A stretch of 64,000 bases of DNA from an uncultured Bacteroidales bacterium (GTDB lineage: Bacteria > Bacteroidota > Bacteroidia > Bacteroidales > ML635J-15): NCBI GenBank assembly GCA_937982115.1, contig CALJNE010000009.1, positions 24,582-88,581 of the forward strand, written 5' to 3'. Of this stretch, positions 1 to 63,148 are shown piece by piece; the first letter of the stretch is position 1, and every line of letters begins with the position of its first letter. The notes under the pieces are model-generated. The model saw nothing but the letters and a program-made list of their open reading frames with translations. It had not been told where the DNA came from and ran no database searches. Made by a program: the position numbers and the translations under genes.

Positions 1-3000
1 ACGGAAAAAAAGTTTTAAGTTTGGATATTGTTGATAATTAATGCTATCTGCAAGTCCATCAATAATTCCGGAAAAATCTGTAAGTTCGGGGAAAATTTGC
101 TCGTATTGATTTTGAGAATTTAATCCCAGAATTTTTATTCTTATTTCATCAGTAACAGGGTCTTCATTTTCTGTAGTTTCCCACACAAAACTTTGCCATT
201 CTTGAGATGGACCTACATCAACCGAGGTGATAAATCCGTTGTCGAAATTTGTAAAAAGATCTGTCTGAAAAATTATTGTATCTGTACTGCTATTTCCGTA
301 TAGTTCCTGAGCACTCGAGGGGATTCCTTTTTTCGCAAAGAAAATATAAGGATTGCCGTTTTGCAAATTTCTGATATTGACAGAACCAAGGCTCTCGAAA
401 GTTTGATAAAGACTTTCGGGCCACTGTCTGAAATAAGCATTACCCCACGAATAGGACAAAACATAATGACCATCCGGAATATCATTTAACATATTTTCGA
501 AATTTTCAAGACTTTCATAATTAACTGTATTACCTGACCCTGTACTAAAACTGAAGAAATACTGAGGACGAATTGAAGAAAAACATTGCGGATAATTCCT
601 ATGACCATAATCCTGAATATTTGACGGCCAGGCCAACAATGTCTCCGGATCAATTACTGCCACAAGCATAGCAGCTGCAGTACCGCAATTCCCGAAATCT
701 CCCAATCCATTACCTATTGAACCGTCAATCTTCCACGAAACAAACTCATAACCATCAATCCAGTAAGAGCCGGTATTTTTGCAAACTAATCTTCGAGGAT
801 AATCAACATAACGAAATTCTCTCGCAACACGATCATAATCTATAAAGTGAAAAGAATTTTCTTTAAACTGGAAAAAATGCGCCTGCGACCACCCCTCTTC
901 CCCTTCGATATAAATAAACGAAGACTCCATCCATACAATAGAATCGGGATTTGAATGCTGTGCTGCTATCTGCCAATAATAAACAGTATTCTCATCTAAT
1001 TCAAAAGGTAACTGCCAGACCACAAGTCCTCCCGAGGATTGAACACTCGCCTGTCGTAACAACGGGCTATTAAAAAGATCTGTTGTATCAATTCTGAAAA
1101 GATAATTCTGTGGTTCAGAAAAAGGATTTCCTGTAGAAGCAATTAAAGAAATATTTTTTATAGGGACAATTGAATATTTATATGGATAAACTGGGAAGAG
1201 ATCTCCGGTCTTTATTAAAAAGTTTATATTTGAAACATTATTATCTTCGTTTAGTTCGTCAACATCATTTCCGGAATCCAGATAAATTCTAATTGTATTT
1301 AAGCCAGGTGCTTTTAGTCTATCCACAGGAAGTTTTAAACTTACTGTTTTTTCAAAGTAACAATAATCAACCGGAATCGAATATTCAGAGATACTGCCAT
1401 CAGAAAAGATTCGTGTAAGCCCTGTGATAAAACTTTCATTTGTAGCTTTACCTATATTTTTAATTAATATTTTCACCTCAAAACTATCGGCAACAGTACT
1501 TACCTGAATAGGATTCAGTGCAATCTGAGCCGGAGTAATAACAAAATCCGGTTTTTCGTGCGAATTTATTATTATTGCAGGATCCCCGTGTAAAGTAAAT
1601 TCGTGACAGGTAATCTCCATCAACAAATTTGACCAGTAAGAGTTCTGTAAATTTTTAATTGCGTTAATTATCTGAAATGAAACAGGACGATTGTAAAGTT
1701 TATAGGCAATATTTTTATATAGCTCGTTGCTGAAAATATTAAGATACGAAGAAAACCCATCTCCGACAGAAGCAAGAAAAGCTATAGAACCGCCATTTAC
1801 AGCTTTTACCCATCTTTCGCTGATACTGCCAGAACCTCGCTGATGTATGTCGCCGGAAAAACAAGAATTGGCAAGAATAAAAGGATATTTTCCTTTGTTA
1901 GAATAAGTTTCGGGAAAATCAATATCCTGATCAAAACCTGAAGCCGAGGCATGACCAAAAAATGTCATCATCGAGACACCGCCGTTAATCAAATTTCTAA
2001 CACTGTCAGTCTGAGTAATTTGAATAGGTTCGGATGATGTTTTCAGAAAAGTACTGACCCTTGCACCAAAAAGAGTGTCTTCGATTATATTTTTATAATT
2101 ATTCAAATACGAAGCAAAAGTGTTTTGTTCGTTTGCATTAGATCCGCCGCCGAAATGGACTACATATTTCATCCACTCTGCCGGTAAGTTTGATTCATAC
2201 TCAATAACTTTGTTAAGATATGACAATACTTCTTCATTATTACGAGCACTCAGACGTCCGGTTCCAAAAAGTGGTTCAAAATGTGTTAGTCCTAAACCGG
2301 CAGTAAGGAGATTATCACTTGAAGGATTTCCAGCACTTGGAACCAAACATTCGGCATACCTTGCAGAATCTTTGCGATATAATCGAGTATGAAGAGATTT
2401 GCCAAGTAAAAACAACATTCGCGGACGTTGATTAAAGCTGTAAAGATGTTCTATAAAACGTCTGATGGCAACAGGATGTTTACCAACTCCGTAAGCATAT
2501 TGATCGCAAAGATGATCTATGTCAACTAATGCTACATTCATTCCTTTTGATGCTCTGTAATTGGCATATTGTTGTGCCGAACTCCATAAACTTTTATTTG
2601 TAACAATAACGTAATCGCTCGTCTTAAATTGATCAAAATAATTCGTAAACTTATTGTCGTTACTAACTTTTGTGATTCGGTCAACACTTTTAATTCCTGC
2701 CTCATTTACTAAAACTAAAAATCTTAGAGATGAAGTATTTGAAACCAGAGCCTTTAAAAGTCCTTGATCCTTAACAATCGAAATTCGTTTGTGATTAGTA
2801 AGATCGTAAAGTATATATTCATTTCCTGAAGCAAAGTTTGAAATTTCCAGATAATCCTTTTCTGTTGTAAAATTGGCGGGCAAATAAAATTCAAAATGAT
2901 TTTTATTCTCAAAATCCCATGTATGAGGATAAATAATTTGAATATAAGAAACTGCATTTCTGTCGGGGATATTTGGCTGAGTGGCGTCATTAGCAGAGAA

Positions 3001-3837
3001 CTGAATACTTATATTGTTAGTTAATTGGTTTGAAGGAACAGATATGCTTTCTCTTACAAATTGATAGCCTGTGTATGTTCTATTAATTCTCTCCTGTCCT
3101 AAAAAATTTACTTTTAGATGATGTGGAACATTAGAAGTTACCTGATTAGCCGGAACTCCTACCACTGCAATTTCAAATACTGCCGGCACTAATGATGAAT
3201 GAAAATTCGGGACAGATATTGTTTTTGTAACAGGATTAGTCTCGGTAATTACCGAATTATCAAACCAACCTTCGCCTTCGGTAAAAGGATTTCTTGTTGA
3301 TCCCCAATAATATGTAGAAACATAATTAGTCCTTATTTTTCGCAGACAATACTCCTGAGCAAAAGACACATAAGTAGAAAAATTATTATCGTTTTCAACA
3401 GCAAATCTTCTGTTACCGGTAGAATAAGACCAAGTAAGAAAATAAACAGAAGTATCGTTGTAAAAACTGTAATCATTATTTACTCTTGAATCCGGCGAAT
3501 CGAAAAATTCGAGGTCGTCATCTCCCCTGTTTCTTATTCCATAAAACTCAATATATCCACTTGGATCAAATATTCCTGTAGAACTTTCCCCTTTTATATA
3601 GATGTATTGTTCTTCGCCTCTGTAAAACAGTTGTATCCCCCTCGGATCAATCTGATTTACCGGAACACCGGCATTAAGGAGTTCAGAATAAGAAATTCTA
3701 TATATCCCATCAGCGGAGATATGAATTTTAAAATATTGTTTATTATAATCAATCCAGGAATTTGCCTGAGTAAAAGCTGAAAAATAAAAAAGCAATGAAA
3801 GAATAAGGTTTATAATTATTTTATATTCTTTCTGCAT
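1..3837 (-). CDS. Peptidase C25 (gingipain-fold) family protein, PorU-like T9SS sortase candidate; 3' end beyond left window edge (>=1279 codons)
   Basis: Uninterrupted minus-strand frame from ATG 3837-3835 to position 1 (1279 codons, no stop). It is absent from the supplied track because it has no in-window stop. The N-terminus MQKEYKIIINLILSLLFYFSAFTQA looks like a signal peptide. A clan-CD His/Cys dyad sits in MMTFFGHASASGF (His codon 1953-1951) and FILANSCFSGD (Cys codon 1863-1861). The gene starts 33 nt downstream of a PorV-family gene. Confidence 0.7.
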   Translation of the reverse strand, partial: MQKEYKIIINLILSLLFYFSAFTQANSWIDYNKQYFKIHISADGIYRISYSELLNAGVPVNQIDPRGIQLFYRGEEQYIYIKGESSTGIFDPSGYIEFYGIRNRGDDDLEFFDSPDSRVNNDYSFYNDTSVYFLTWSYSTGNRRFAVENDNNFSTYVSFAQEYCLRKIRTNYVSTYYWGSTRNPFTEGEGWFDNSVITETNPVTKTISVPNFHSSLVPAVFEIAVVGVPANQVTSNVPHHLKVNFLGQERINRTYTGYQFVRESISVPSNQLTNNISIQFSANDATQPNIPDRNAVSYIQIIYPHTWDFENKNHFEFYLPANFTTEKDYLEISNFASGNEYILYDLTNHKRISIVKDQGLLKALVSNTSSLRFLVLVNEAGIKSVDRITKVSNDNKFTNYFDQFKTSDYVIVTNKSLWSSAQQYANYRASKGMNVALVDIDHLCDQYAYGVGKHPVAIRRFIEHLYSFNQRPRMLFLLGKSLHTRLYRKDSARYAECLVPSAGNPSSDNLLTAGLGLTHFEPLFGTGRLSARNNEEVLSYLNKVIEYESNLPAEWMKYVVHFGGGSNANEQNTFASYLNNYKNIIEDTLFGARVSTFLKTSSEPIQITQTDSVRNLINGGVSMMTFFGHASASGFDQDIDFPETYSNKGKYPFILANSCFSGDIHQRGSGSISERWVKAVNGGSIAFLASVGDGFSSYLNIFSNELYKNIAYKLYNRPVSFQIINAIKNLQNSYWSNLLMEITCHEFTLHGDPAIIINSHEKPDFVITPAQIALNPIQVSTVADSFEVKILIKNIGKATNESFITGLTRIFSDGSISEYSIPVDYCYFEKTVSLKLPVDRLKAPGLNTIRIYLDSGNDVDELNEDNNVSNINFLIKTGDLFPVYPYKYSIVPIKNISLIASTGNPFSEPQNYLFRIDTTDLFNSPLLRQASVQSSGGLVVWQLPFELDENTVYYWQIAAQHSNPDSIVWMESSFIYIEGEEGWSQAHFFQFKENSFHFIDYDRVAREFRYVDYPRRLVCKNTGSYWIDGYEFVSWKIDGSIGNGLGDFGNCGTAAAMLVAVIDPETLLAWPSNIQDYGHRNYPQCFSSIRPQYFFSFSTGSGNTVNYESLENFENMLNDIPDGHYVLSYSWGNAYFRQWPESLYQTFESLGSVNIRNLQNGNPYIFFAKKGIPSSAQELYGNSSTDTIIFQTDLFTNFDNGFITSVDVGPSQEWQSFVWETTENEDPVTDEIRIKILGLNSQNQYEQIFPELTDFSGIIDGLADSINYQQYPNLKLFFR

Positions 3838-3869
3838 ATTTTACTTTTACTTCAAAGATATAGAAATTC

Positions 3870-4970
3870 TTAATTCAATGGTTCAGATTGTTTGAAAAAG
3901 TTTTTTGTATCAAATCTGTATGATAAAGAGAATATGTGAGAATAAAGGGCTATACTCTTATTTCCGATATCAGTATAGGCATAATCAAGATTAAATCCGT
4001 AAAGTTTAATTCCAAGTCCAATATTTGGTTGCCAGCTGAAAGATGTGGTATTGTTGTATTCCGGGATTTGTTGAAAATTATTTACTCCACCCCTAACAAA
4101 TATCATATCATTATAAGAAAACTCTATTCCCAAAGAAGGATCTGCACTAATTAGGTTTGATTTCAAAATAGTATTTCTTTTTCCGTCGGTAGTAACAATC
4201 ATTCCAATTTCGGGATAAACCGAAAAGTTTTTATCAAGATTAACTTTGTAACCTGCACCTATTAATAATCTTGGTAGAGTAATTTCAAGACCGTTTTCAG
4301 GAATCTCATTTCCGGTTGCAATAAAAACATCTTCAAACATTTCGCGATTAAATGACCATGCATTAAAAGTTCCAAAAACATCACGAAGATTAACCCCCAA
4401 ATATAAATTTTTCATCTTATATGAAGCAGCTGCATCTATCCCAAATCCCCATGCATCTGCAAAACTTCCTACTACTCTCCTTATAACTTTAGCACTGCCG
4501 CCTATGCTTAATCCGTCAATCGGCATCAAACGACTGTATGAAAACAAAAAAGCATAATCAGCAACAGAAAAGGAACTGATTCTGTCATAACGTATATTGC
4601 CGTCACTATCAATAAGGTCAAGAGTATTCGGAATATCATCTACGCCGAAACGTATCATCGAAAAACCTGCAACTGATTTATCGTCAAGTCTGTAAGAGGC
4701 ACCCAAAAAATCATATTTTGCAATTCCGGCAAAATACTCTGCATGCATACCTCCTATTTCCATCTGCTTATCAAGACTCGTTAGCAAAGCCGGATTCCAA
4801 TAAACACCACTAATATCTTTTGCAGACGCAATTACAGAGTTCCCCATTGCAAAAGATCTTCCTCCAACACCTATGGAAAGAAATTCATTACTGTATTTTG
4901 GAGCATTCTGAGAAAATCCCCAAACAGAACAAAATATTAAAAATATTATTATTTTTGACTTCAGTTTCAT
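3870..4970 (-). CDS. PorV/PorQ-family outer-membrane beta-barrel protein (T9SS-associated)
   Basis: 366-aa ORF with signal peptide MKLKSKIIIFLIFCSVWGFSQ. The N-terminal motif FLSIGVGGRSFAMGNSVIASAKDISGVYWNPALL resembles PorV/LptO-type barrels. It shows an alternating beta-strand pattern to the C-terminus (..FSLSYRFD). Confidence 0.6.
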   Translation of the reverse strand: MKLKSKIIIFLIFCSVWGFSQNAPKYSNEFLSIGVGGRSFAMGNSVIASAKDISGVYWNPALLTSLDKQMEIGGMHAEYFAGIAKYDFLGASYRLDDKSVAGFSMIRFGVDDIPNTLDLIDSDGNIRYDRISSFSVADYAFLFSYSRLMPIDGLSIGGSAKVIRRVVGSFADAWGFGIDAAASYKMKNLYLGVNLRDVFGTFNAWSFNREMFEDVFIATGNEIPENGLEITLPRLLIGAGYKVNLDKNFSVYPEIGMIVTTDGKRNTILKSNLISADPSLGIEFSYNDMIFVRGGVNNFQQIPEYNNTTSFSWQPNIGLGIKLYGFNLDYAYTDIGNKSIALYSHIFSLSYRFDTKNFFKQSEPLN

Positions 4971-5039
4971 AAAACAACTTTATTCTTACAAAATAACAAC
5001 ATGTTTTTGTATTTATTGTAAAATTAATTAAAAAAATGT

Positions 5040-5762
5040 ATGAACCTAAAATACTTTATTCCATCACTTTTAACCTCAACCAATATATTTTTGGGTTCTG
5101 CTGCGGTTTTTTGTGCAGTTGAAGGACAAACAGACCTTGCTGTTTATCTTGTTTTGTTTGCAGCACTATTTGATTTTGCAGATGGTTTTTTTGCTAGAAT
5201 ATTAAATGCCGTCAGTGATTTCGGGAAGCAACTTGATTCACTATCAGACCTGATAAGTTTCGGTTTTGCTCCGGCAAGTATCTTATATTATCATATTTCC
5301 ACAAACCTAAATTCAAATCTTTTAGCCTTTACTCCAATACTTATTGTAATATTTTCAGCTCTAAGACTTGCAAAATTCAATATTGATCCCGAACAGAAAA
5401 GCAGTTTCAAAGGACTACCAACACCTGCTAATGCAATATTTTTAATAACATTATTCCATTCAGATTCAACAAAAATTTCATTTATCGAAACATTATTGAA
5501 AAACGATATTTTCATAGTAATATTAATAATTGTTTTATCGACATTACTTGTTTTGCCATTAGAATTTTTCTCATTAAAAATTAAAAAATTGGTTATCAGA
5601 GAAAATATATTTCAAATCATATTGATTTTAAGCGGGATAGCACTTTTTTTATTTTTTGGAATAGCAGGAATTTCATTTTCAATAATTTTATATATTGCAC
5701 TTTCAATTTTTAAAAGTATTTTTGGCAAAAAAAAGAGCAATGAAATATTTAGCACAGATTGA
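5040..5762 (+). CDS. pssA: CDP-diacylglycerol--serine O-phosphatidyltransferase (phosphatidylserine synthase)
   Basis: 240-aa polytopic ORF carrying the CDP-alcohol phosphatidyltransferase motif DG-FF-AR-x8-G-x3-D-x3-D (DFADGFFARILNAVSDFGKQLDSLSD). Ends in a TGA stop at the expected length. Confidence 0.75.
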   Translation: MNLKYFIPSLLTSTNIFLGSAAVFCAVEGQTDLAVYLVLFAALFDFADGFFARILNAVSDFGKQLDSLSDLISFGFAPASILYYHISTNLNSNLLAFTPILIVIFSALRLAKFNIDPEQKSSFKGLPTPANAIFLITLFHSDSTKISFIETLLKNDIFIVILIIVLSTLLVLPLEFFSLKIKKLVIRENIFQIILILSGIALFLFFGIAGISFSIILYIALSIFKSIFGKKKSNEIFSTD

Positions 5763-5991
5763 TATCATGCCTCAAAAGGCCTTATTAGATCCACAGGGTA
5801 AAGCAGTGTTAAACTCTTCGCAAAAAATCGGATTTGATTTTGTTGAAAATGTAAGAGTAGGCAAACACATTGAAGTTGAACTCGAAGCAGCATCAAAAGA
5901 AGATGCTCAGGCAAAAACAGATGAATTGTGCCGTAAAATTTTAATAAACCCGATCATAGAATATTACGAATTTCATATCACAGAAATTTAA
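5740..5991 (+). CDS. purS: Phosphoribosylformylglycinamidine synthase subunit PurS
   Basis: 83 aa from ATG 5740 (MKYLAQIDIMPQKALLDPQGKAVLNSSQKIGF...VRVGKHIEVELEA), a PurS-like pattern. The longer 5695 start in the track lies inside pssA, so I prefer the ATG. The gene overlaps the pssA 3' end by 23 nt. Confidence 0.7.
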   Translation: MKYLAQIDIMPQKALLDPQGKAVLNSSQKIGFDFVENVRVGKHIEVELEAASKEDAQAKTDELCRKILINPIIEYYEFHITEI

Positions 5992-6019
5992 AAAATTTTT
6001 GCTGCATTAATTTTTTTTA

Positions 6020-6027
6020 TATATTTG
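6020..6027 (+). promoter_or_regulatory. Bacteroidota sigma-A -7 box (TAnnTTTG) for tRNA-His
   Basis: tatatttg lies 12 nt upstream of the tRNA 5' end. Confidence 0.5.
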
Positions 6028-6038
6028 CAGCCCGAAAT

Positions 6039-6113
6039 GGTGATTGTAGCTCAGTTGGTTAGAGCGCCAGATTGTGGCTCTGGAGGTCGCGAGTTCGAGT
6101 CTCGTCTTTCACC
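6039..6113 (+). tRNA. tRNA-His (anticodon GTG at 6074-6076), with encoded G-1; no CCA encoded
   Basis: Hand-folded cloverleaf. G-1 (6039) lies opposite C73 (6113). D arm is gctc/agttggtta/gagc; anticodon arm is ccaga/ttGTGgc/tctgg; T arm is gcgag/ttcgagt/ctcgt. Acceptor pairs 5:68 and 6:67 are T:T mismatches. Confidence 0.8.
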
Positions 6114-6121
6114 CTTAAAAA

Positions 6122-6149
6122 CTGCTCATTCTTTGGGCAGTTTTTTTTT
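6122..6149 (+). terminator. Rho-independent terminator after tRNA-His
   Basis: Stem ctgctca/tgggcag (one G-U), loop ttctt, followed by a T9 run. Confidence 0.7.
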
Positions 6150-6302
6150 GAGGTCGCGAGCTCCGAAAAATAAAAATTTCAATTATTTACAATACCAACT
6201 CCTTTAACAATATTTCTGCCGCGATAATATCTCGGAGATTCTAATTACAGTAACATTACCTGAAATTAAGATTGCGGGAGAAAGATGTTAAGACCAACAT
6301 TT

Positions 6303-7283
6303 CTACACAATCCCTTCTCGTATCAAATCGTGAAGATGCACCATTCCCAAATAAGTATTATTTTTATCCACTACTACTACCTGAGTAATGTTATTTTCTC
6401 TGATAATCTTCAAGGCATTTATTGCGGGTTCTTCTTTTTGAATTGTCTTTGGATTGGGGGACATTATATCTCCGGCAGTTATTTCAGTAATTATGGAAAG
6501 CCTTGACTCTATAGTTCTTCTTAAATCACCATCAGTAATTATGCCTAACAATTTATTTTCTGTATCAACAACAGCAGTTGCACCTAAACGTTTAGAAGTA
6601 ATTTCCGAAATTATTCGTTTAATGTCATCTTCCGGAAAGACTTTTGGTTTTTCATTAAGTATATAAATATCTTCTACTCTCAAATAAAGTTTTTTACCAA
6701 TAGAGCCCCCAGGATGAAGTTTTGCAAAATCTTCAGGAGTAAAACCTTTGTATTTCAGAAGAGCTATGGTTAAGGCATCTCCAAGTACCAATTGAGCAGT
6801 TGTACTTGCTGTAGGGACAAGATTATCGGGACTGGCTTCTTTTTCAATTTCAGCATGCAGAATATAATCGGCTGATTTTGCCAAAAACGAATCTAAATCC
6901 GATACTATTGCAATAATTTTGTTTTTGTTAGCTTTAATTAATGGTATCAATACTTTTATTTCTGGAGTGTTACCACTTTTTGAAATACAAATAACAATAT
7001 CTTCTTGTTGTACTATGCCTAAATCACCGTGGATAGCATCAGCGGCGTGCATAAATATTGCCGGTGTTCCTGTGGAATTTAAACTTGCAACAATTTTAAT
7101 CCCGATGTTGGCACTTTTGCCTATTCCTGTAACAATAACTCTCCCTTTACCACAAGCAATTAATTCTACTATTTCGGCAAAACTATCATCTATTTTTTCT
7201 GAAAGTCGCAAAATGGTTTCACCTTCGATTTTGATAGTATTTTTTGCTGCTTGTAAAATGTTTTCTTTTAAATATCTTTGCAT
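6303..7283 (-). CDS. kdsD: Arabinose-5-phosphate isomerase, KpsF/GutQ family (SIS + tandem CBS)
   Basis: 326 aa. SIS motifs GRVIVTGIGKSANIG and ISKSGNTPE, followed by a C-terminal CBS pair. Confidence 0.8.
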   Translation of the reverse strand: MQRYLKENILQAAKNTIKIEGETILRLSEKIDDSFAEIVELIACGKGRVIVTGIGKSANIGIKIVASLNSTGTPAIFMHAADAIHGDLGIVQQEDIVICISKSGNTPEIKVLIPLIKANKNKIIAIVSDLDSFLAKSADYILHAEIEKEASPDNLVPTASTTAQLVLGDALTIALLKYKGFTPEDFAKLHPGGSIGKKLYLRVEDIYILNEKPKVFPEDDIKRIISEITSKRLGATAVVDTENKLLGIITDGDLRRTIESRLSIITEITAGDIMSPNPKTIQKEEPAINALKIIRENNITQVVVVDKNNTYLGMVHLHDLIREGIV

Positions 7284-7398
7284 CCCAAAATTTTTTGCTA
7301 AATTAGAAATATTTAAAAATTAATTAGTGTGAAATTTTTGAAATAATTTTTTGTGATTAAAAAATTTATTAAATTTGAATAAATATAAATTTCTGGAA

Positions 7399-9576
7399 AT
7401 GGGAAATAAAGAGCAGTTAATATATAAAGTTTTAAAAGAGTATTTTGGTTTTGACAATTTCAAAGGGTTACAAAAAGAGGTTATATTAAGTTTGCTTGAT
7501 GGTAAAGATGTTTTTGTTTTGATGCCAACCGGTGGAGGAAAATCTTTATGTTTTCAGTTACCTGCTCTTATTCTTGACGGAGTTGCTGTTGTTATTTCTC
7601 CACTTATTGCCTTGATGAAAAATCAGGTTGACTCTATGAGGGGTTTCAGCACAGAAGAAGGCGTAGCACATTTTCTTAACTCTTCATTAACGAAAACAGA
7701 AATTACCAGAGTAAAAGAAGATATTTTAAAAGGTAAGACCAAATTATTATATGTAGCTCCAGAATCTCTGACAAAAGAAGAAAACGTTGAGTTCTTACAA
7801 AAAATAAAAATTTCTTTCTACGCTATTGACGAAGCTCATTGTATATCGGAATGGGGACATGATTTCAGACCTGAGTACAGAAGAATCCGAGAAATTGTTA
7901 ATGTGGTTGGAAGAGCTCCAATAATGGCATTAACAGCAACAGCGACACCAAAAGTACAGCATGATATCCAGAAAAACTTGGATATGATGGATGCTGTTGT
8001 TCATAAATCTTCATTCCGCAGACCTAATCTATACTACGAGGTACGTCCAAAAGTAAAAGCAGCCAAAGAAATAATCAAATTCATCAAAAACAACCCGGGA
8101 AAATCCGGTATTGTGTATTGTTTAAGCCGCAAAAAAGTTGAGGAGCTTGCAGAAATGTTTGCTATCAATGGTATAAAAGCTCTCCCATACCATGCCGGCT
8201 TGGATTCCAATACTCGTAACCGCAATCAAGACATGTTTCTGAACGAAGAAATTGATGTAATTGTAGCTACAATAGCTTTCGGTATGGGGATTGATAAACC
8301 AGATGTGAGATTTGTAATTCACTATAATATTCCGAAAAGTCTCGAAGGCTACTATCAAGAAACAGGAAGAGCAGGTCGTGACGGTGGTGAAGGAAAATGT
8401 ATTACTTTTTACAGTTACGATGATATTCAAAAGCTCGAAAAGTTCATGCAAAACAAAAGCGTAAGCGAACAGGAAATAAGTAAACAATTACTTTCCGAAA
8501 CTGTTTCTTATGCCGAAAGCAGCACTTGTAGAGTTCGTCAGCTTTTGAATTATTTCGGAGAAGAAATGAAAGAAGATTGCGGCAATTGTGACAATTGTCT
8601 GAACCCAAAACCAAAATTCGATGCAAAAGAAGATGTTCTTACTGTTTTGGAAACAATTCTTTCCGTAAAAGAAAAATTCAAAGCCGAACATATTGTAAAT
8701 ATAATTATAGGTAAAAAAACTGCTGACATTGTTACATACAAACATCAGGATTTACCCATGTTCGGAGTAGGTGGAGATGATGCATTGCATTGGAAATCAG
8801 TTATTAGACAGATGCTTATTGCAAAATTAGTAGAAAAAGAAATTGTTAATTACGGATTATTAAAAATAACTCCTGCCGGACATGATTTTATGAAAAATTC
8901 CAAAACTATTATGTTCTCCAAAGATCATGATTACGAAGAAGGGGATTCTGATGAAGCAATGTTCAGCGGAGGAACAGCTCTTGATAATGAATTATTTTCC
9001 ATGCTTAAGGATTTACGTAAAGATGTATCAAAAAAACTCGGAGTTCCGCCATTTGTTATTTTTTCCGACCCATCTTTACAGGAAATGGCTACACAATATC
9101 CGATTACCATGGATGAACTCACAACCATTACAGGAGTTGGACAAGGTAAAGCACAAAAATACGGAAAAGAATTTCTCGAATTAATTAAAAAACACGTTGA
9201 AGAAAACGAAATTGAACGACCTCAGGATTTCGTGGTTAAATCAGCTGTAAATAAATCTTCAAATAAGGTATTTATCATTAAAAATATTGATAAAAAAATG
9301 CCTCTCGAAGAAATTTGCAATTCTTTGGGAATAGAGATGATTGACCTTATTGAAGAAATGGAAGCCATTGTAAATTCAGGAACACGAATAAACATTGACT
9401 ATCACATCAACTCTGTAATGGATGAAGATGTAGTTGATGATATTTACACCTATTTTAAAGAAGATGCAGAATCAGATTCTATTGAAGATGCCTTGAAAGA
9501 ACTCGAACCCGAAGGCTATTCAGAAGAAGAAATAAGACTGGTAAGAATAAAATTTATAAGTGAGGTAGGTAACTAA
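7399..9576 (+). CDS. recQ: ATP-dependent DNA helicase RecQ
   Basis: Walker A MPTGGGKS, DEAH box AIDEAHCISEWGHDFRPEY, RQC zinc cysteines (CRVRQLLNYFGE..CGNCDNC) and an HRDC-like C-terminus. I prefer ATG 7399 over the TTG at 7375. Confidence 0.9.
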   Translation: MGNKEQLIYKVLKEYFGFDNFKGLQKEVILSLLDGKDVFVLMPTGGGKSLCFQLPALILDGVAVVISPLIALMKNQVDSMRGFSTEEGVAHFLNSSLTKTEITRVKEDILKGKTKLLYVAPESLTKEENVEFLQKIKISFYAIDEAHCISEWGHDFRPEYRRIREIVNVVGRAPIMALTATATPKVQHDIQKNLDMMDAVVHKSSFRRPNLYYEVRPKVKAAKEIIKFIKNNPGKSGIVYCLSRKKVEELAEMFAINGIKALPYHAGLDSNTRNRNQDMFLNEEIDVIVATIAFGMGIDKPDVRFVIHYNIPKSLEGYYQETGRAGRDGGEGKCITFYSYDDIQKLEKFMQNKSVSEQEISKQLLSETVSYAESSTCRVRQLLNYFGEEMKEDCGNCDNCLNPKPKFDAKEDVLTVLETILSVKEKFKAEHIVNIIIGKKTADIVTYKHQDLPMFGVGGDDALHWKSVIRQMLIAKLVEKEIVNYGLLKITPAGHDFMKNSKTIMFSKDHDYEEGDSDEAMFSGGTALDNELFSMLKDLRKDVSKKLGVPPFVIFSDPSLQEMATQYPITMDELTTITGVGQGKAQKYGKEFLELIKKHVEENEIERPQDFVVKSAVNKSSNKVFIIKNIDKKMPLEEICNSLGIEMIDLIEEMEAIVNSGTRINIDYHINSVMDEDVVDDIYTYFKEDAESDSIEDALKELEPEGYSEEEIRLVRIKFISEVGN

Positions 9577-9604
9577 ATCATAACTCTCACTTATATTGCT
9601 AATT

Positions 9605-10300
9605 ATGAAATTCAAGAAAGATATTATTAAAATTGCTGTTGACGGTTTTTCCTCTTGCGGGAAAAGTACACTTGCTAAAGACCTTGCCTCAGAATTAGGA
9701 TTTATTTACATAGATTCGGGGGCAATGTATAGAGCAGTTACACTTTATGCAATTCGTAAAGGTTTCTTTGTGGATCAAAATCTAAATTCTGTTGAACTAA
9801 TCAATTCTCTTAATCAGGTAAACATAGATTTTACTACTGACGAAAATTCAAATCTAATTACACTCTTAAACGAAGAAAATGTAGAAGCTGAGATACGTTC
9901 TCTTTCGGTTTCGTCCAAAGTAAGTATAATTAGCTCTGTTCCGGAAGTAAGAAAAAAAATGGTTGAACTCCAACGACAAATGTCCGCAAAGAAATCTGTA
10001 GTTATGGATGGAAGAGATATCGGGACAGTTGTTTTTCCAGATGCGGACATTAAATTTTTCGTTACTGCCGACATTGAAACACGAGCAAAAAGACGTTTTC
10101 TGGAGCTTTTAGAAAAAGGTCAAAATCCCGACTTCGAAGAAGTAAAGAAAAATATATTTGACAGAGACTTTCTTGATCAAAACAGGAGCGATAGCCCTTT
10201 AATTAAAGCTCCCGACGCAATTCTTATTGACAATACCAACCTGAACAGAACAGGACAACTAGAACTGGCCTTATCTTACATCAAAAAAACATTATGTTAA
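9605..10300 (+). CDS. cmk: Cytidylate kinase
   Basis: P-loop IAVDGFSSCGKSTLAKDLA and the DSGAMYRA motif. ATG 9605 preferred over the TTG at 9596. Confidence 0.85.
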   Translation: MKFKKDIIKIAVDGFSSCGKSTLAKDLASELGFIYIDSGAMYRAVTLYAIRKGFFVDQNLNSVELINSLNQVNIDFTTDENSNLITLLNEENVEAEIRSLSVSSKVSIISSVPEVRKKMVELQRQMSAKKSVVMDGRDIGTVVFPDADIKFFVTADIETRAKRRFLELLEKGQNPDFEEVKKNIFDRDFLDQNRSDSPLIKAPDAILIDNTNLNRTGQLELALSYIKKTLC

Positions 10301-11169
10301 TCGAGATTGATAAATATGCAGGCTTTTGTTTTGGAGTAACTCAGGCAATTCAAAAAGCCGAAACTTTAATTAAAAATAAAATTGATTTTTATTGTATAGG
10401 AGAAATTGTGCATAACAAAAAAGAAGCTCAGAGGTTAGAAAATCTCGGCATGAAAAAAATAGAAAAAGCTGATATCGAAGAAATTAAGAACTCTGCCATA
10501 CTTATCCGAGCTCACGGTGAACCTCCCGAAACATATTTGCAAGCAACTAAAAATAACAATAAAATTTACGATGCCACCTGTCCTGTTGTTCTAAAATTAC
10601 AGCAAAAAATTAAAAATGTTTACAATCAGAACCCTGAAGCAACCATTATCATTTTTGGCAAAGCCGGACATCCCGAAGTCAACGGGTTAATGGGACAAAC
10701 CGACAATAAAGCAATCGTTGTAGGCAATTCCAAAGAAATTGATGATATCAACTTTTCAAATAATGTTATCCTTTTTTCGCAAACCACATCTGATTACTTT
10801 GAATATCAAAATTTAATAACATTAGTAGAGAATAAATTAAAAGAAACCTACGGAAAAGACTACATCCTTCAAGTTAATCAAACAATTTGTCCATCAGTTA
10901 AAAACAGAATTCCGGGCTTAAAAGATTTTTGTTCAAAATATGATATAATCATTTTTGTTTCAGATTATAGTTCTTCAAATGGAAAAAGTTTATTTGAAAT
11001 TTGTAAATCAGAAAAGCCGGGCAAAACATATTTTATTACCTCCACTAAAGATATCCAGAAAGAGTGGTTCATGAATATAAAATCAATTGGAATAACAGGA
11101 GCAACCTCAACTCCTTTATGGTTAATGGAAGATGTAAAAAACACAATCGAAAAAATAGTTAATAATTAA
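10294..11169 (+). CDS. ispH: 4-hydroxy-3-methylbut-2-enyl diphosphate reductase (LytB/IspH)
   Basis: 291 aa. Three conserved Cys contexts (FCFGV, ATCPVV, TICPSV). The start overlaps the cmk stop by 7 nt. Confidence 0.85.
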   Translation: MLIEIDKYAGFCFGVTQAIQKAETLIKNKIDFYCIGEIVHNKKEAQRLENLGMKKIEKADIEEIKNSAILIRAHGEPPETYLQATKNNNKIYDATCPVVLKLQQKIKNVYNQNPEATIIIFGKAGHPEVNGLMGQTDNKAIVVGNSKEIDDINFSNNVILFSQTTSDYFEYQNLITLVENKLKETYGKDYILQVNQTICPSVKNRIPGLKDFCSKYDIIIFVSDYSSSNGKSLFEICKSEKPGKTYFITSTKDIQKEWFMNIKSIGITGATSTPLWLMEDVKNTIEKIVNN

Positions 11170-11194
11170 TTAAAATGAAGGTTTTAATATTTAG

Positions 11195-11202
11195 TATATT
11201 TG
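11195..11202 (+). promoter_or_regulatory. -7 box TAnnTTTG upstream of pfkA
   Basis: tatatttg lies 16 nt before ATG 11218. Confidence 0.45.
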
Positions 11203-11217
11203 CAAAAAATTGTAAAA

Positions 11218-12198
11218 ATGGCAAAAATTAAGAAAATTGCAGTTTTAACTTCGGGAGGCGATGCTCCCGGTATGAATGCTGCTATAAGAGCAGTTGTTAG
11301 AAAAGCATTAAGTGAAAATCTGAAAGTATATGGAGTTTTAAGAGGATACGAAGGTCTGATAAAAGGGGATTTTATTCCCATGAACTCCAAAAGTGTTGGG
11401 AACATAATTCAATTGGGCGGAACAATTTTAAAGACAGCTAGATCCGAAAAATTCAGAAGTGTTGAGGGACGCCAACAAGCTTACAATAATTTAATAGAAA
11501 AAGAAATTGATGCTCTGGTGGTAATAGGTGGAGACGGGACTTTCAAAGGAGCCAGAATTTTTGCAGAAGAACACAATTTTCCCATTGTAGGACTTCCCGG
11601 AACAATTGATAATGACCTTTTCGGGACAGACATGACTATTGGTTTTGATACAGCCATAAATACCGCAGTCGAAGCTATTGATAAAATTAGGGATACTGCA
11701 GCCTCGCACGAAAGAATATTTTTTGTTGAAGTTATGGGCCGAGATGCAGGCTTTATTGCTCTAAGAGTTGGAATTGCCAGCGGAGCCGAAGCTGTTATTG
11801 TCCCCGAAGTTCCCACAGATCTTGAGCAGTTGCACAACAGACTTGTGGAATACATGCAACGCAAAAAAACATCAAGCATAATTATCGTCGCTGAAGGTGA
11901 TGATGCCGGAGGAGCTTTCGAAATTAAGAAAGCTATGGAAAAATACGGCGATGAATTTGATATGAAAGTTACCGTTCTCGGTCATATTCAAAGGGGCGGT
12001 TCTCCAACTGCCTACGACAGATACCTCGCAAGCCGTCTTGGAGTTGCTGCCATTGATGCCCTCCTCGACGACCAACGCAGTGTTATGGTTGGAATGATTA
12101 ATAGACAGATTGTATATGTACCTTTTAATCAAACAATTAAACACCATAAAACAATAGACCAAACTCTGCTCGATGTAGTTGATGTTCTTAATACTTAA
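11218..12198 (+). CDS. pfkA: ATP-dependent 6-phosphofructokinase
   Basis: Motifs VLTSGGDAPGMNAAIR, PGTIDND, VEVMGRDAG and GHIQRGG. Confidence 0.9.
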   Translation: MAKIKKIAVLTSGGDAPGMNAAIRAVVRKALSENLKVYGVLRGYEGLIKGDFIPMNSKSVGNIIQLGGTILKTARSEKFRSVEGRQQAYNNLIEKEIDALVVIGGDGTFKGARIFAEEHNFPIVGLPGTIDNDLFGTDMTIGFDTAINTAVEAIDKIRDTAASHERIFFVEVMGRDAGFIALRVGIASGAEAVIVPEVPTDLEQLHNRLVEYMQRKKTSSIIIVAEGDDAGGAFEIKKAMEKYGDEFDMKVTVLGHIQRGGSPTAYDRYLASRLGVAAIDALLDDQRSVMVGMINRQIVYVPFNQTIKHHKTIDQTLLDVVDVLNT

Positions 12199-12207
12199 TT
12201 TATTTTA

Positions 12208-14664
12208 ATGTTAAATTATCGTTTTGCCGAAATTTTATTACCTCTAAACGTTGATAATACATATACTTACGAACTTACCGAAACACAGGGATTTGTGGAT
12301 GTTGGTTTTCGTGTAATTGTGAGTTTCGGTAAAAATAAATTATACACCGGTATTGTAAATGAATTACACAATAATACTCCAAATTATCCCACAAAACCTA
12401 TAATCGAAATAGTTGATTCTGCTCCTATTGTAACAAAAAAACAATTGCAGCTGTTATTCTGGATACGAGATTATTATTGCTGTAATGCAGGTGAAGTATT
12501 AGCTGCCATGTTGCCCGGAGACCTTTTACCCGGCGACGAATCCATCATTTATTTTAATCAAGAAAATTCAGAAAATTTTGATTTAGCCTCACTTAACGAT
12601 ACTGAATTTTTAATAATTCAGGAACTCAAAAAGAATGAAAAAATCTCTGTTAATCATCTAAAATCCATTACAAAAATTAAAAATATCCTAAAAAACATAA
12701 ATAATTTACAAAAATACCAACTTTTAAGTGTAGGAAAAGAAATTACCGAAACTTATGCTCCTAAATTAAAAAAAATAGTGGTTTTCAATCCCGAAAGACT
12801 GTCTTTATTGGATTCAATAAAACTTAGAGGTCCTAAACAAAACGATTTAATAGCTTATCTTACAGAAATCTCTATAGCAAACAATAATCAAACCGTTGAA
12901 ATTCCGCAAGAAGAACTCGAAAAACAAACAAGAGTATCATTACAAACAATCAAAACATTAGTTGACAAGGGAATTATTGAAATAAAAACCATACAAATTT
13001 CAAGATCAATAGAAAATAAAGATTTTGATTTTTCAGGCAATTCAGAAATTGTTCTTTCGGAGCATCAAACAGAAGCATATAAGAATATTTTACAAAATTT
13101 TGCGGAAAATAAACCTGTTCTGCTGCATGGTGTAACATCAAGCGGAAAGACCGAAATTTATATTAAACTTATAGAAAAAATCATATCCGAAGAGAAACAA
13201 GTTTTATATCTGCTGCCCGAAATAGCTATTACAGGACAAATCATTTCAAGGCTGCAACAAATTTTCGGTAAAATTGTAGGAGTTTATCACAGCAGATTTA
13301 ATAAAAACTACAAAATTGATTTATACAATGACCTATTAAAAAATGATCTCAAAATTATTATAGGAGTTAGGTCTTCAATCTTTTTGCCTTTTTCTGATTT
13401 AGGATTAATAATTGTTGATGAAGAAAATGATCCATCGTACAAGCAGCAAGATCCCGATCCTCGTTATAATGCAAGAGATGTAGCATTGATACTGGCAAGA
13501 TTTCATTCATCAAAAGTAATTTTAGGCTCAGCAACACCTTCGCTTGAATCTTATTACAATACTATCAAGGGAAAATACAAACTCGTTGAACTAACCAGAA
13601 GATATAATGAAGTACTTTTGCCCGAAATACATATTGCCGACATTAAAGATGCTTACCGCAGAAAAATAATGAAAGGGCATTTTCATCCATTGCTTTTTGA
13701 TAAAATAATATCCAATCTTAATGCCGGGAATCAAATAATTTTATTTCAGAACCGTAGAGGATTTTCACCATACATAGAATGTGCAGACTGCGGTCATATT
13801 CCAACTTGTAAATCTTGCAACGTAAGTCTCACTTTTCATAAAAACAATAATTCATTGCTTTGTCATTACTGCGGACAATCTTATAAATACTCCGATTCGT
13901 GTGAGAAGTGCGGCAGTACCAAACTTAAAACCAAAGGATTTGGCACAGAAAGAATAGAAGATGAAGTAAAACTTTTGTTTCCGCAGGCAAGAGTTGCCCG
14001 GCTCGATCACGACAATGCAAATTCAAAAACAAAATTTGAAACAATTTTAAACAACTTCAAAGAAGGGCTCATTGATATCCTGATAGGAACGCAGATGATT
14101 GGTAAAGGACTTGATTTTGAAAGAGTTAAGCTCGTCGGGATATTGAATGCCGACAACATGATAAATTTTCCTGATTTCAGAGCTTTCGAACGTTCGTGGC
14201 AATTGATGGCACAAGTTAGCGGAAGATCTGGACGCAGAACAGACAGAGGCGAAGTAGTTATTCAAACGTTTTCACCCAATCATAAAATCATTGATTGGGT
14301 GATTAATAACAGCTACAAAGAAATGTTTTATGACCAGATAAAAGAAAGAAATGCTTTCAAATATCCTCCTATATTTTCATTTATAACCGTAAAAGTAAAA
14401 CATAAAGATAAAACAAAGGCATATAGTGCTGCTGAGTTTTTTGCAAAAACCATTAAAGCTAATCCACATTTAATTGTCAACGGACCTTTTGAACCTGTGA
14501 TAAATAAAATTAGTAATTTCTTTATTTATAACGTATTAATAAAAATGCCCAGAACTATTAACAATAAAGAAATTAAGGATCTTATCCGTAAATTGATTAT
14601 TGAAACAAAAAAAGATAACAGGTTTGTTTCGGTAAATTTTGAAATTGATGTTGATCCATATTAG
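12208..14664 (+). CDS. priA: Primosomal replication restart protein N' (PriA helicase)
   Basis: 818 aa. Walker A HGVTSSGKTE, IIVDEEND box and a Cys-rich zinc region (CADCGHIPTCKSC...CHYCG...CEKCG). Confidence 0.9.
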   Translation: MLNYRFAEILLPLNVDNTYTYELTETQGFVDVGFRVIVSFGKNKLYTGIVNELHNNTPNYPTKPIIEIVDSAPIVTKKQLQLLFWIRDYYCCNAGEVLAAMLPGDLLPGDESIIYFNQENSENFDLASLNDTEFLIIQELKKNEKISVNHLKSITKIKNILKNINNLQKYQLLSVGKEITETYAPKLKKIVVFNPERLSLLDSIKLRGPKQNDLIAYLTEISIANNNQTVEIPQEELEKQTRVSLQTIKTLVDKGIIEIKTIQISRSIENKDFDFSGNSEIVLSEHQTEAYKNILQNFAENKPVLLHGVTSSGKTEIYIKLIEKIISEEKQVLYLLPEIAITGQIISRLQQIFGKIVGVYHSRFNKNYKIDLYNDLLKNDLKIIIGVRSSIFLPFSDLGLIIVDEENDPSYKQQDPDPRYNARDVALILARFHSSKVILGSATPSLESYYNTIKGKYKLVELTRRYNEVLLPEIHIADIKDAYRRKIMKGHFHPLLFDKIISNLNAGNQIILFQNRRGFSPYIECADCGHIPTCKSCNVSLTFHKNNNSLLCHYCGQSYKYSDSCEKCGSTKLKTKGFGTERIEDEVKLLFPQARVARLDHDNANSKTKFETILNNFKEGLIDILIGTQMIGKGLDFERVKLVGILNADNMINFPDFRAFERSWQLMAQVSGRSGRRTDRGEVVIQTFSPNHKIIDWVINNSYKEMFYDQIKERNAFKYPPIFSFITVKVKHKDKTKAYSAAEFFAKTIKANPHLIVNGPFEPVINKISNFFIYNVLIKMPRTINNKEIKDLIRKLIIETKKDNRFVSVNFEIDVDPY

Positions 14665-15609: not shown

Positions 15610-15684
15610 GGTCCATTCGTCTAGCGGTTAGGACGCCAGATTTTCATTCTGGTAGCAGGGGTTCGATTCCCCTATGGACTGCCA
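15610..15684 (+). tRNA. tRNA-Glu (anticodon TTC), CCA encoded
   Basis: Hand-folded. Acceptor is ggtccat/atggact (G1:U72). D arm is gtct/agcggtta/ggac; anticodon arm is ccaga/ttTTCat/tctgg; T arm is agggg/ttcgatt/cccct; ends gcca. Confidence 0.85.
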
Positions 15685-16558: not shown

Positions 16559-16597
16559 TATAATTTTTTAGGTTAACTATTATTTTGATTGTTGTTG

Positions 16598-16669
16598 AGC
16601 GGGAAACGGGGCTCGAACCCGCGACCCTCAGCTTGGGAAGCTGATGCTCTACCACTGAGCTACTCCCGC
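16598..16669 (-). tRNA. tRNA-Gly (anticodon CCC)
   Basis: The reverse complement folds as gcgggag-ta-gctc/agtggta/gagc-a-tcagc/ttCCCaa/gctga-gggtc-gcggg/ttcgagc/cccgt-ttcccgc-t. Confidence 0.85.
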
Positions 16670-62968: not shown

Positions 62969-63148
62969 AATGTATTTTTTTGATTTTTTGGCAATATACA
63001 AAATTTTAAAAATACAACAATGTTAAAATTCAATTTTTTAGATATAACAACGTTTTTCATTACATATTATAATGTTTTTTGATATTTTTCAACATCGTGT
63101 TTAACCTGTCATATCGAATAAATAATTCATAATTTTTAAGAATTTAAC

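Follow-up and report, generated by a model that had tools for sequence, protein, structure and literature searches.

Attachment of proteins to the cell surface by type IX secretion systems (T9SS) is understood from the PorU/PorV/PorQ/PorZ complex of Porphyromonas gingivalis alone, in which PorV and PorQ are FadL-type barrels that bind C-terminal domains (CTDs), PorV being the cargo shuttle and the anchor of PorU, and PorQ the anchor of PorZ. A 64,000-nucleotide stretch of DNA from an uncultured Bacteroidales bacterium (contig CALJNE010000009.1; GC content 33%), hereafter the window, raises the question of whether this is the only such module in Bacteroidota. At one end of the window, on the minus strand, a gene for a PorV-like outer-membrane barrel is followed by a gene for a very large C25 cysteine peptidase, denoted here porV2 and porU2, respectively. 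A first-pass annotation of the sequence had taken the two for a paralogous second sorting module rather than the core porU-porV pair.

The porU2 frame is, as that annotation had it, free of stop codons over the 1279 codons translated from position 3837 to position 1, and it is absent from the list of open reading frames (ORFs) because it runs past the edge of the window. The full length was recovered from metagenome contigs found by exact look-up of the barrel protein. One of these, L001, shares the 3837 bases of porU2 in the window without a single difference, supplies the missing C-terminus of 388 amino acids (aa) and encodes a complete product of 1667 aa (L001 positions 5489-10492). The barrel gene lies upstream on the same strand and encodes 366 aa, as previously described, although the spacer between the two genes is 32 nt rather than 33 nt. 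Read by eye, the N-termini of both proteins resemble signal peptides (MKLKSKIIIFLIFCSVWGFSQ followed by NAPKY…, and MQKEYKIIINLILSLLFYFSAFTQ…), in agreement with the signal peptide assigned earlier to the large ORF, whose N-terminus is MQKEYKIIINLILSLLFYFSAFTQANSW.

Family assignment and relation to the canonical pair

The comparison of the pair with PorU- and PorV-specific and other profile models, which the first-pass annotation had suggested, places it in the PorU2 and PorV2 families and not in the canonical ones. The window part of PorU2 obtains 743.2 bits with the equivalog model NF052324, titled “putative type IX secretion system sortase PorU2”, for which 450 are required; residues 11-867 align to model positions 6-879 of 879, and the full-length protein obtains 741.8 bits. 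The model of canonical PorU, NF033707, has its cut-off at 420, which neither the window part (154.6 bits) nor the full-length protein (221.8 bits) reaches. For PorV2, the score is 466 bits with the equivalog model NF052325, titled “putative type IX sorting system protein PorV2”, against a cut-off of 325, and residues 10-353 cover model positions 9-353 out of 354. It also passes the PorV/PorQ family model NF033709 (109.4 bits, cut-off 90), which upholds its earlier description as a PorV/PorQ-type barrel, but fails the models of canonical PorV (NF033710, 40.5 bits, cut-off 250) and PorQ (NF033711, 62.7 bits, cut-off 220). Among Pfam families, only sub-threshold matches of PorV2 to PorV, OMP_b-brl and Toluene_X were found. 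With E-values of 4e-223 and 6.5e-140 for the pair in NCBIfam and of 6e-60 for Peptidase_C25 in Pfam, a chance match can be dismissed.

A canonical pair from Fluviicola taffensis DSM 16823, Fluta_2550 (PorU, AEA44535.1) and, directly after it, Fluta_2551 (PorV, AEA44536.1), taken from the supplementary FASTA of a published survey (PMC7323717), was used as a control and scores in reverse: Fluta_2550 obtains 1216 bits on the PorU model and 117 bits on the PorU2 model, and the first 320 aa of Fluta_2551 obtain 295 bits on the PorV model, the PorV2 model remaining silent. The pair from a Fluviicola metagenome-assembled genome (MAG; locus L057) obtains 712 bits on the PorU2 model and 483 bits on the PorV2 model. 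The models thus distinguish sharply between canonical and PorU2/PorV2 pairs, and the window pair belongs with the latter. By these sequence profiles, the window proteins are members of the PorU2 and PorV2 families, which they match end to end, without differences. Both families are already curated and named by NCBI, and one homologue (P0075) carries the PorU2 name there; the suspicion that annotation pipelines might already use such names was thus well founded, and it removes most of the novelty, the window adding one more member.

A search of 160 fetched loci with the canonical PorU, PorV and PorQ of F. taffensis gave a canonical-type match in only one, L093 (Ga0272449_1001773, a 21.4-kb contig). 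Canonical PorU is encoded there on the minus strand and scores 1004 bits on NF033707, with an additional match to the “long form” N-terminal model; the other genes encode a PorP/SprF-family protein divergent from PorU (203 bits), GldJ (458 bits) and PorU2, which scores 673 bits and has a CTD of type A. The presence of PorU and PorU2 on the same contig is direct evidence that the two co-exist in one genome, and PorU2 can sit among T9SS and gliding genes. Similarly, in locus L090, genes for PorP/SprF and a PorE-like protein lie upstream of PorU2. At the genus level, Fluviicola has both kinds, with the canonical pair in F. taffensis and PorV2-PorU2 pairs in six other species-level genomes. A homolog search with the catalytic fragment of P. 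gingivalis PorU returned short partial PorUs only. Positions 2-10887 of L093 form a compact T9SS cluster, in which porV2 is not adjacent and canonical PorU is clipped by the edge of the locus.

These results bear directly on the simplest alternative, namely that the window holds the sole porU/porV pair of the organism, a variant of the core module with reversed gene order. In its favor, no second C25 or PorV-like gene was found within the 64-kb window. However, the canonical scores fall far under their cut-offs (155-222 vs 420 for PorU and 40 vs 250 for PorV) when the PorU2 and PorV2 models are passed, the control pair behaves in the opposite way, and L093 and the genus Fluviicola combine both sortases and both kinds of pair, respectively, so that a gene-order variant is very improbable and can be considered effectively excluded. 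Because the PorU2 and PorV2 models are passed and the canonical ones failed, the control is reversed and L093 holds both sortases, the sequences support the first-pass annotation, which had proposed that porV2-porU2 is not the core porU-porV pair but a second, paralogous module for sorting.

The family appears to have escaped previous phylogenetic work. The supplementary FASTA of a 2020 survey of 20 T9SS components in PeerJ, the source of the control pair, is without PorV2 or PorU2 sequences (PMC7323717), and a search of its supplements for the hallmark motifs of PorV2 and PorU2 found none. In 14 of 19 T9SS trees, the same survey reports F. taffensis sequences away from the clades in which they were expected (PMC7323717); given the composition of the FASTA, confusion with paralogues of the PorU2/PorV2 family is not the cause.

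Domain architecture of PorU2 and PorV2

PorU2 follows the plan of PorU, enlarged by some 500 residues that lie after the C25 domain and before the CTD. From the N-terminus, it consists of the presumed signal peptide, PorU-like N-terminal domains, the C25 domain, a CARDB domain, beta-sandwiches, an ILEI/FAM3-like domain, further beta-sandwiches and a PorU-type CTD (Table 1). With PorU (P. gingivalis PG0026, structure 6ZA2; F. johnsoniae; Fluta_2550) it shares the N-terminal region, the start of the C25 domain at residue 404, the His/Cys dyad, immunoglobulin-like (Ig-like) domains and a CTD of the retained type. Unlike PorU, which has 1156-1294 aa (1156 in P. gingivalis), it extends to 1667 aa, the additional residues including the ILEI/FAM3-like domain, and it accordingly has the excess length that had been predicted from the truncated frame. 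A profile built from 20 full-length PorU2 homologues matches 6za2, the crystal structure of P. gingivalis PorU, with E=2e-13, aligning the C25 domain (404-757 on 404-787) and the CTD (1530-1632 on 1039-1141).

The catalytic dyad pointed out in the first-pass annotation consists of His629 (window 1951-1953), within FFGHASASGF, and Cys659 (window 1861-1863), within LANSCFSG. Both residues are unchanged in an alignment of 20 family members and align with His211 and Cys244 of gingipain R (RgpB, 1cvr), which also has the C25 catalytic fold, and with the dyad of P. gingivalis PorU (6za2). The likeness to RgpB is, however, confined to the catalytic domain (E=4e-6), the gingipain being without the PorU-type flanks. 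At the other end of the protein, the last 113 aa, encoded beyond the window, align with the C-terminal part of the PorU model (positions 998-1079 of 1095, E=7.8e-15); they also pass the type A CTD model TIGR04183 (26.3 bits, cut-off 23) and give a weak match to the CTD of PorZ. Conservation in PorU2 is highest in the C-terminal third.

The part of PorU2 that PorU does not have includes an alpha/beta domain of the ILEI/FAM3 (GG-lectin-like) type. The Pfam ILEI match is short (aa 1104-1171) and recurs in 11 of 13 family members, and the best match by profile in the PDB is FAM3B (2yop, E=0.007). An AlphaFold2 (AF2) model of residues 756-1667 consists of the CARDB Ig-like domain, a beta-sandwich, the alpha/beta domain, more beta-sandwiches and the CTD.

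This architecture could also suit a different function, in which PorU2 would itself be cargo, a T9SS-secreted surface protease with a degradative or maturation role like that of the gingipains, and PorV2 its dedicated anchor or shuttle. Gingipains also belong to family C25, the CTD of PorU2 is type A-like as in cargo proteins, the extra lectin-like ILEI and Ig-like region is reminiscent of the adhesin or binding modules that secreted enzymes carry, and no cargo neighbor of PorU2 is conserved (see below). Nevertheless, homology to PorU spans the N-terminal region of approximately 400 aa and the CTD, whereas gingipain R aligns in the catalytic domain only; the CTD is far closer to the retained CTD of PorU than to the generic cargo model (53.6 vs 26.3 bits); and both the length (median 1685 aa, 1543-1747, for complete ORFs from the two scans described below) and the sequence are tightly kept across orders, which is unusual for secreted hydrolases. 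A role as a cargo protease thus seems rather unlikely, although it deserves consideration.

The AF2 model of PorV2 (predicted local distance difference test score, pLDDT, 74; predicted template modeling score, pTM, 0.72) is a beta-barrel with an N-terminal segment ahead of it. In fold comparisons, it is closest to PorV from the SprA translocon complex of F. johnsoniae (8gl6_F; E=3.6e-11, template modeling (TM) score 0.57), with FadL and TodX coming next, and the family profile compared with the entire PDB has PorV as its sole match even at E≤10. With PorV (F. johnsoniae, 6H3I/8GL6) and PorQ, PorV2 shares the family model, the N-terminal motif and the FadL-type barrel, which by homology would have 14 strands. 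At 366 aa (median of the family in the same two scans, 367 aa), it is shorter than the 402-aa PorV of F. johnsoniae, as had been noted.

Unlike PorV and PorQ, PorV2 possesses a near-invariant segment of its own, RFGVDDIPNT...DGNI..YD. This segment, RFGVDDIPNTLDLIDSDGNIRYDRISS, whose aa 107-128 read RFGVDDIPNTL·L·D··GNI·Y almost without variation, is located between strands 3 and 4 (E99-110 and E136-148) in a loop-like region of low pLDDT. By analogy with FadL and PorV, it is probably an extracellular loop, and its conservation marks it as a candidate binding site. Conservation of this strength is unusual in a loop of an outer-membrane barrel. PorV2 as a whole is unusually conserved, with a mean column identity of 65% vs 54% in PorU2.

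Another FadL homologue of Bacteroidota, the BamG subunit of the machinery for beta-barrel assembly (BAM), has 14 strands, is conserved and possesses a conserved N-terminus (PMC12578637). The resemblance to a barrel of this description, together with the presence of BAM-complex chains (9hiv_F, 9hjm_F, 9n2d_B) among the fold matches of PorV2, could suggest that the barrel is a BamG-type subunit. This identity has a negligible probability given the TM scores of the BAM chains, 0.32-0.44 vs 0.57 for PorV, the restriction of the profile matches in the PDB to PorV and the passing score on NF033709, and it is effectively excluded.

Table 1. Features of the window discussed in the text (positions in the window; domain boundaries in residues of the encoded protein)
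Feature	Position	Strand	Basis
porU2, N-terminal 1279 of 1667 codons, stop beyond window; C25 cysteine peptidase and putative second sortase of the T9SS	1..3837	-	open frame; NF052324
PorU2-specific alpha/beta domain, ILEI/FAM3 (GG-lectin-like) type, aa ~1015-1200	238..795	-	Pfam ILEI E=1e-8; pLDDT ~85-92
CARDB Ig-like domain, aa 762-869	1231..1554	-	Pfam PF07705 E=2.5e-7; well-predicted AF2 beta-sandwich
Peptidase C25 catalytic domain, aa 409-755	1573..2613	-	Pfam PF01364 E=6e-60
porV2-porU2 spacer, 32 nt, TAA stop to ATG	3838..3869	-	sequence
porV2, 366-aa PorV/PorQ-family outer-membrane beta-barrel, first gene of pair	3870..4970	-	NF052325
Near-invariant PorV2 segment RFGVDDIPNTLDLIDSDGNIRYDRISS, aa 107-133	4572..4652	-	invariant columns, 18 sequences, 52-95% identity
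Intergenic region, 69 nt, divergent, common to porV2 and pssA	4971..5039		sequence
pssA (CDP-diacylglycerol-serine O-phosphatidyltransferase), divergent from porV2	5040..5762	+	TIGR00473 121.8 bits, cut-off 107
tRNA-His	6040-6114	+	
tRNA-Glu(ttc)	15610-15684	+	
tRNA-Gly(ccc)	16597-16669	-	

Distribution, gene order and neighborhood

Among 519 clusters of PorU2-like proteins of ~1640-1700 aa that were scored, the best 120 all have full-length coverage; the named sources include MAGs of Bacteroidales, Marinilabiliales and Flavobacteriales. PorV2 is represented by at least 7997 database clusters, and among its cultured carriers are Ancylomarina euxinus, Marinifilum spp., Brumimicrobium aurantiacum, B. 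oceani and Wandonia haliotis, the adjacent pair being present in Brumimicrobium and Wandonia. Gene order was surveyed in two scans: one for PorV2 in a collection with one genome per species (at least 598 confirmed loci) and a reciprocal one for PorU2 in metagenomes (at least 526 confirmed loci), 80 loci being analysed in each.

PorU2 is encoded directly downstream of PorV2 in 63 of the 80 genome loci, and in the other 17 it was not found within 10 kb. One of these 17 is a contig end, and the group takes in every Marinifilaceae locus (L011, L017, L019, L024, L032 and L036, from Ancylomarina, Marinifilum and a Marinifilaceae MAG), in all of which pssA and porV2 are divergent neighbors, porU2 is absent within 10 kb and unrelated housekeeping genes come after porV2. 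In the metagenome loci, PorV2 is directly upstream of PorU2 in 55, 14 are at contig edges and 11 are without PorV2. Orphan PorV2 (~20%) and orphan PorU2 (~17%) are about equally frequent, which points to the splitting of pairs and not to losses of genes.

Wherever both genes are present (114 of 114 loci in the two scans together), PorV2 precedes PorU2 on one strand. The barrel-first order recognized in the window is therefore a trait of the family, and it is opposite to that of canonical systems, in which porU lies upstream of its barrel gene, as in F. taffensis (Fluta_2550 to Fluta_2551). The two genes form a tightly coupled operon: the gap between them has a median of 1 nt and does not exceed 20 nt in 99 of the 114 loci, which suggests co-translation. 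In the spacer of the window, TATCTTTG (3860-3853) matches TAnnTTTG, which we take to be the -7 promoter consensus of Bacteroidota; as an internal promoter before porU2 this element is a weak candidate because TAnnTTTG is not significantly enriched in the AT-rich window (126 occurrences vs 104±10 in shuffles).

On the other side of porV2, pssA is the divergent neighbor in 65 of the 80 genome loci, including most of those without porU2, and purS follows pssA in 41 of the 80; the pssA-purS block (window 5040-5991, plus strand) extends across Bacteroidales and Flavobacteriales. In more distant PorV2-PorU2 pairs, pssA is found near 27 of 55. The persistence of this neighborhood invites the view that PorV2 acts primarily in outer-membrane lipid or envelope biology together with phosphatidylserine synthase, PorU2 being a later or accessory partner. 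Besides the 65 of 80 loci, this view could draw on the fact that 12 or more of the 17 loci without adjacent PorU2 retain pssA beside PorV2, on the stronger conservation of PorV2 compared to PorU2, on the far greater number of PorV2 clusters (at least 7997 vs 519) and on the homology of PorV-type barrels to FadL. On the other hand, the co-conservation of purS points to inherited housekeeping synteny, pssA is transcribed divergently and occurs near only about half of the more distant pairs, and the comparable frequencies of split PorU2 and orphan PorV2 are those expected if both genes persist elsewhere. A primary role of PorV2 in lipid biology is accordingly regarded as improbable. The simplest reading of the pssA-porV2 adjacency is inherited synteny, because purS travels along and pssA passes an ordinary housekeeping model.

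The adjacency has a further potential implication, for the acceptor of the transferred proteins, which for canonical PorU is the amine of an N-seryl sugar in anionic lipopolysaccharide (A-LPS) (PMC10202324). The window pssA gives a weak match (58 bits, cut-off 200) to NF038086, the model of a “protein sorting system archaetidylserine synthase”. Sorting by the archaeosortase ArtA depends on PssA and PssD, with C-terminal lipid anchoring, and thus offers a loose analogy, that of a sorting transpeptidase genetically tied to an enzyme of the phosphatidylserine-synthase type; unlike in the ArtA system, however, the pssA of the window is of the housekeeping type and divergent, the enzyme families are unrelated, and lipid attachment is without support. 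Because PorU uses a sugar amine of A-LPS and ArtA sorting needs PssA and PssD, a phospholipid-amine acceptor for PorU2 is conceivable, if unlikely. An even more elaborate possibility is self-contained attachment by PorU2-PorV2 without PorZ and PorQ, in which the ILEI/FAM3-like domain and the beta-sandwiches would present the acceptor and a subset of cargo would be transferred to a non-A-LPS anchor, possibly the amine of PssA-derived phosphatidylserine or phosphatidylethanolamine; the chances of this scheme appear slim.

In L001, the region past porU2 (10506-14595) begins with a Blc-type outer-membrane lipocalin on the same strand, after a gap of 13 nt, and continues on the opposite strand with an MltD-like SLT+LysM transglycosylase and a 626-aa protein with a type A CTD; none of the three is kept in other loci. 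Positions 1-6117 of the window are 99.8-99.9% identical to L001 and L002, after which L001 becomes wholly different, the break falling exactly at the 3′ end of tRNA-His; the sequence of L002 beyond the break (~320 nt) is too short to judge. Past tRNA-His, the window encodes a KpsF-like protein (SIS+CBS) and RecQ, and L001 has two uncharacterized ORFs (one weak DUF4175 match). This strain-level break of synteny at a tRNA gene is as expected for the insertion of an island; no integrase was seen in the 3.2 kb available. The other genes of the window that were sampled are of the housekeeping type (priA, mutL, a YdiJ-like dehydrogenase and an M16-type peptidase).

A proposed second attachment or processing module

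Taken as a whole, the observations are best explained if the porV2-porU2 operon encodes a second T9SS attachment or processing module, a reading to which we assign a probability of approximately 0.72. By analogy with the PorU-PorV and PorZ-PorQ pairs, PorU2 would be exported through the T9SS by means of its own CTD, which would be retained and dock onto PorV2, fixing the enzyme at the cell surface. There, PorU2 would cut the CTD signals off some T9SS cargo and may pass this cargo to a surface acceptor. The pair would work beside the canonical PorU/PorV module and not as its replacement. The surface location, the docking onto PorV2, the sortase activity, the range of cargo and the acceptor are all inferred from the better-known systems.

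Several observations weigh against this reading. Our literature search found no experimental or descriptive paper on the PorU2/PorV2 family, the text matches to “PorU2” and “PorV2” being PorU or PorV followed by superscript reference numbers, and NCBI labels both proteins “putative”. The AF2 model of the 912 residues 756-1667 of PorU2 is of only moderate confidence (pLDDT 69, pTM 0.34), and a Foldseek search with it was uninformative, giving generic multi-Ig, complement and alpha-2-macroglobulin-like matches with TM scores of ~0.1 and PorU (6za2) at rank 15. In the survey of gene order across Bacteroidota that the first-pass annotation had called for, the order itself held throughout, yet the pair is split in ~17-20% of loci, so that the coupling is not obligatory; moreover, porV2 keeps its place by pssA also in loci that have no adjacent porU2, which would allow for a role independent of PorU2. 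Finally, among the first genes downstream of PorU2 in 113 loci, a recurrent T9SS CTD family was not found; the most frequent neighbor is a phosphatase of the PP2C/SpoIIE type, which is encoded on the other strand in 14 of the 113 and is specific to one lineage, and Lnt comes second with 6 loci.

Because of this last result, the idea that PorU2 serves a subset of cargo is pure conjecture. The first-pass annotation had named as a possible dedicated substrate the giant CTD protein at 57.8-63.0 kb. This protein (57764-63001, minus strand; 1744 aa), with fn3 and HYR domains, carries a CTD of the ordinary type A (51.5 bits) and is encoded 53 kb away from the pair; there is no evidence that it is PorU2 cargo, and the suggestion is rejected. 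Type A CTD cargo is encoded both in the window and just outside it. The giant CTD protein indicates that the organism uses the T9SS.

For the window alone, the outcome is one of ordinary annotation, although the lectin-like insert of PorU2, the invariant loop of PorV2 and the synteny with pssA could guide experiments. The PorU2-PorV2 module is found in approximately 600 or more species-level genomes, from uncultured Bacteroidales, Marinifilaceae, Crocinitomicaceae and others, and is missing from the T9SS literature, the 2020 survey included. If it functions as proposed, its existence implies that many Bacteroidota have two routes of cargo sorting.

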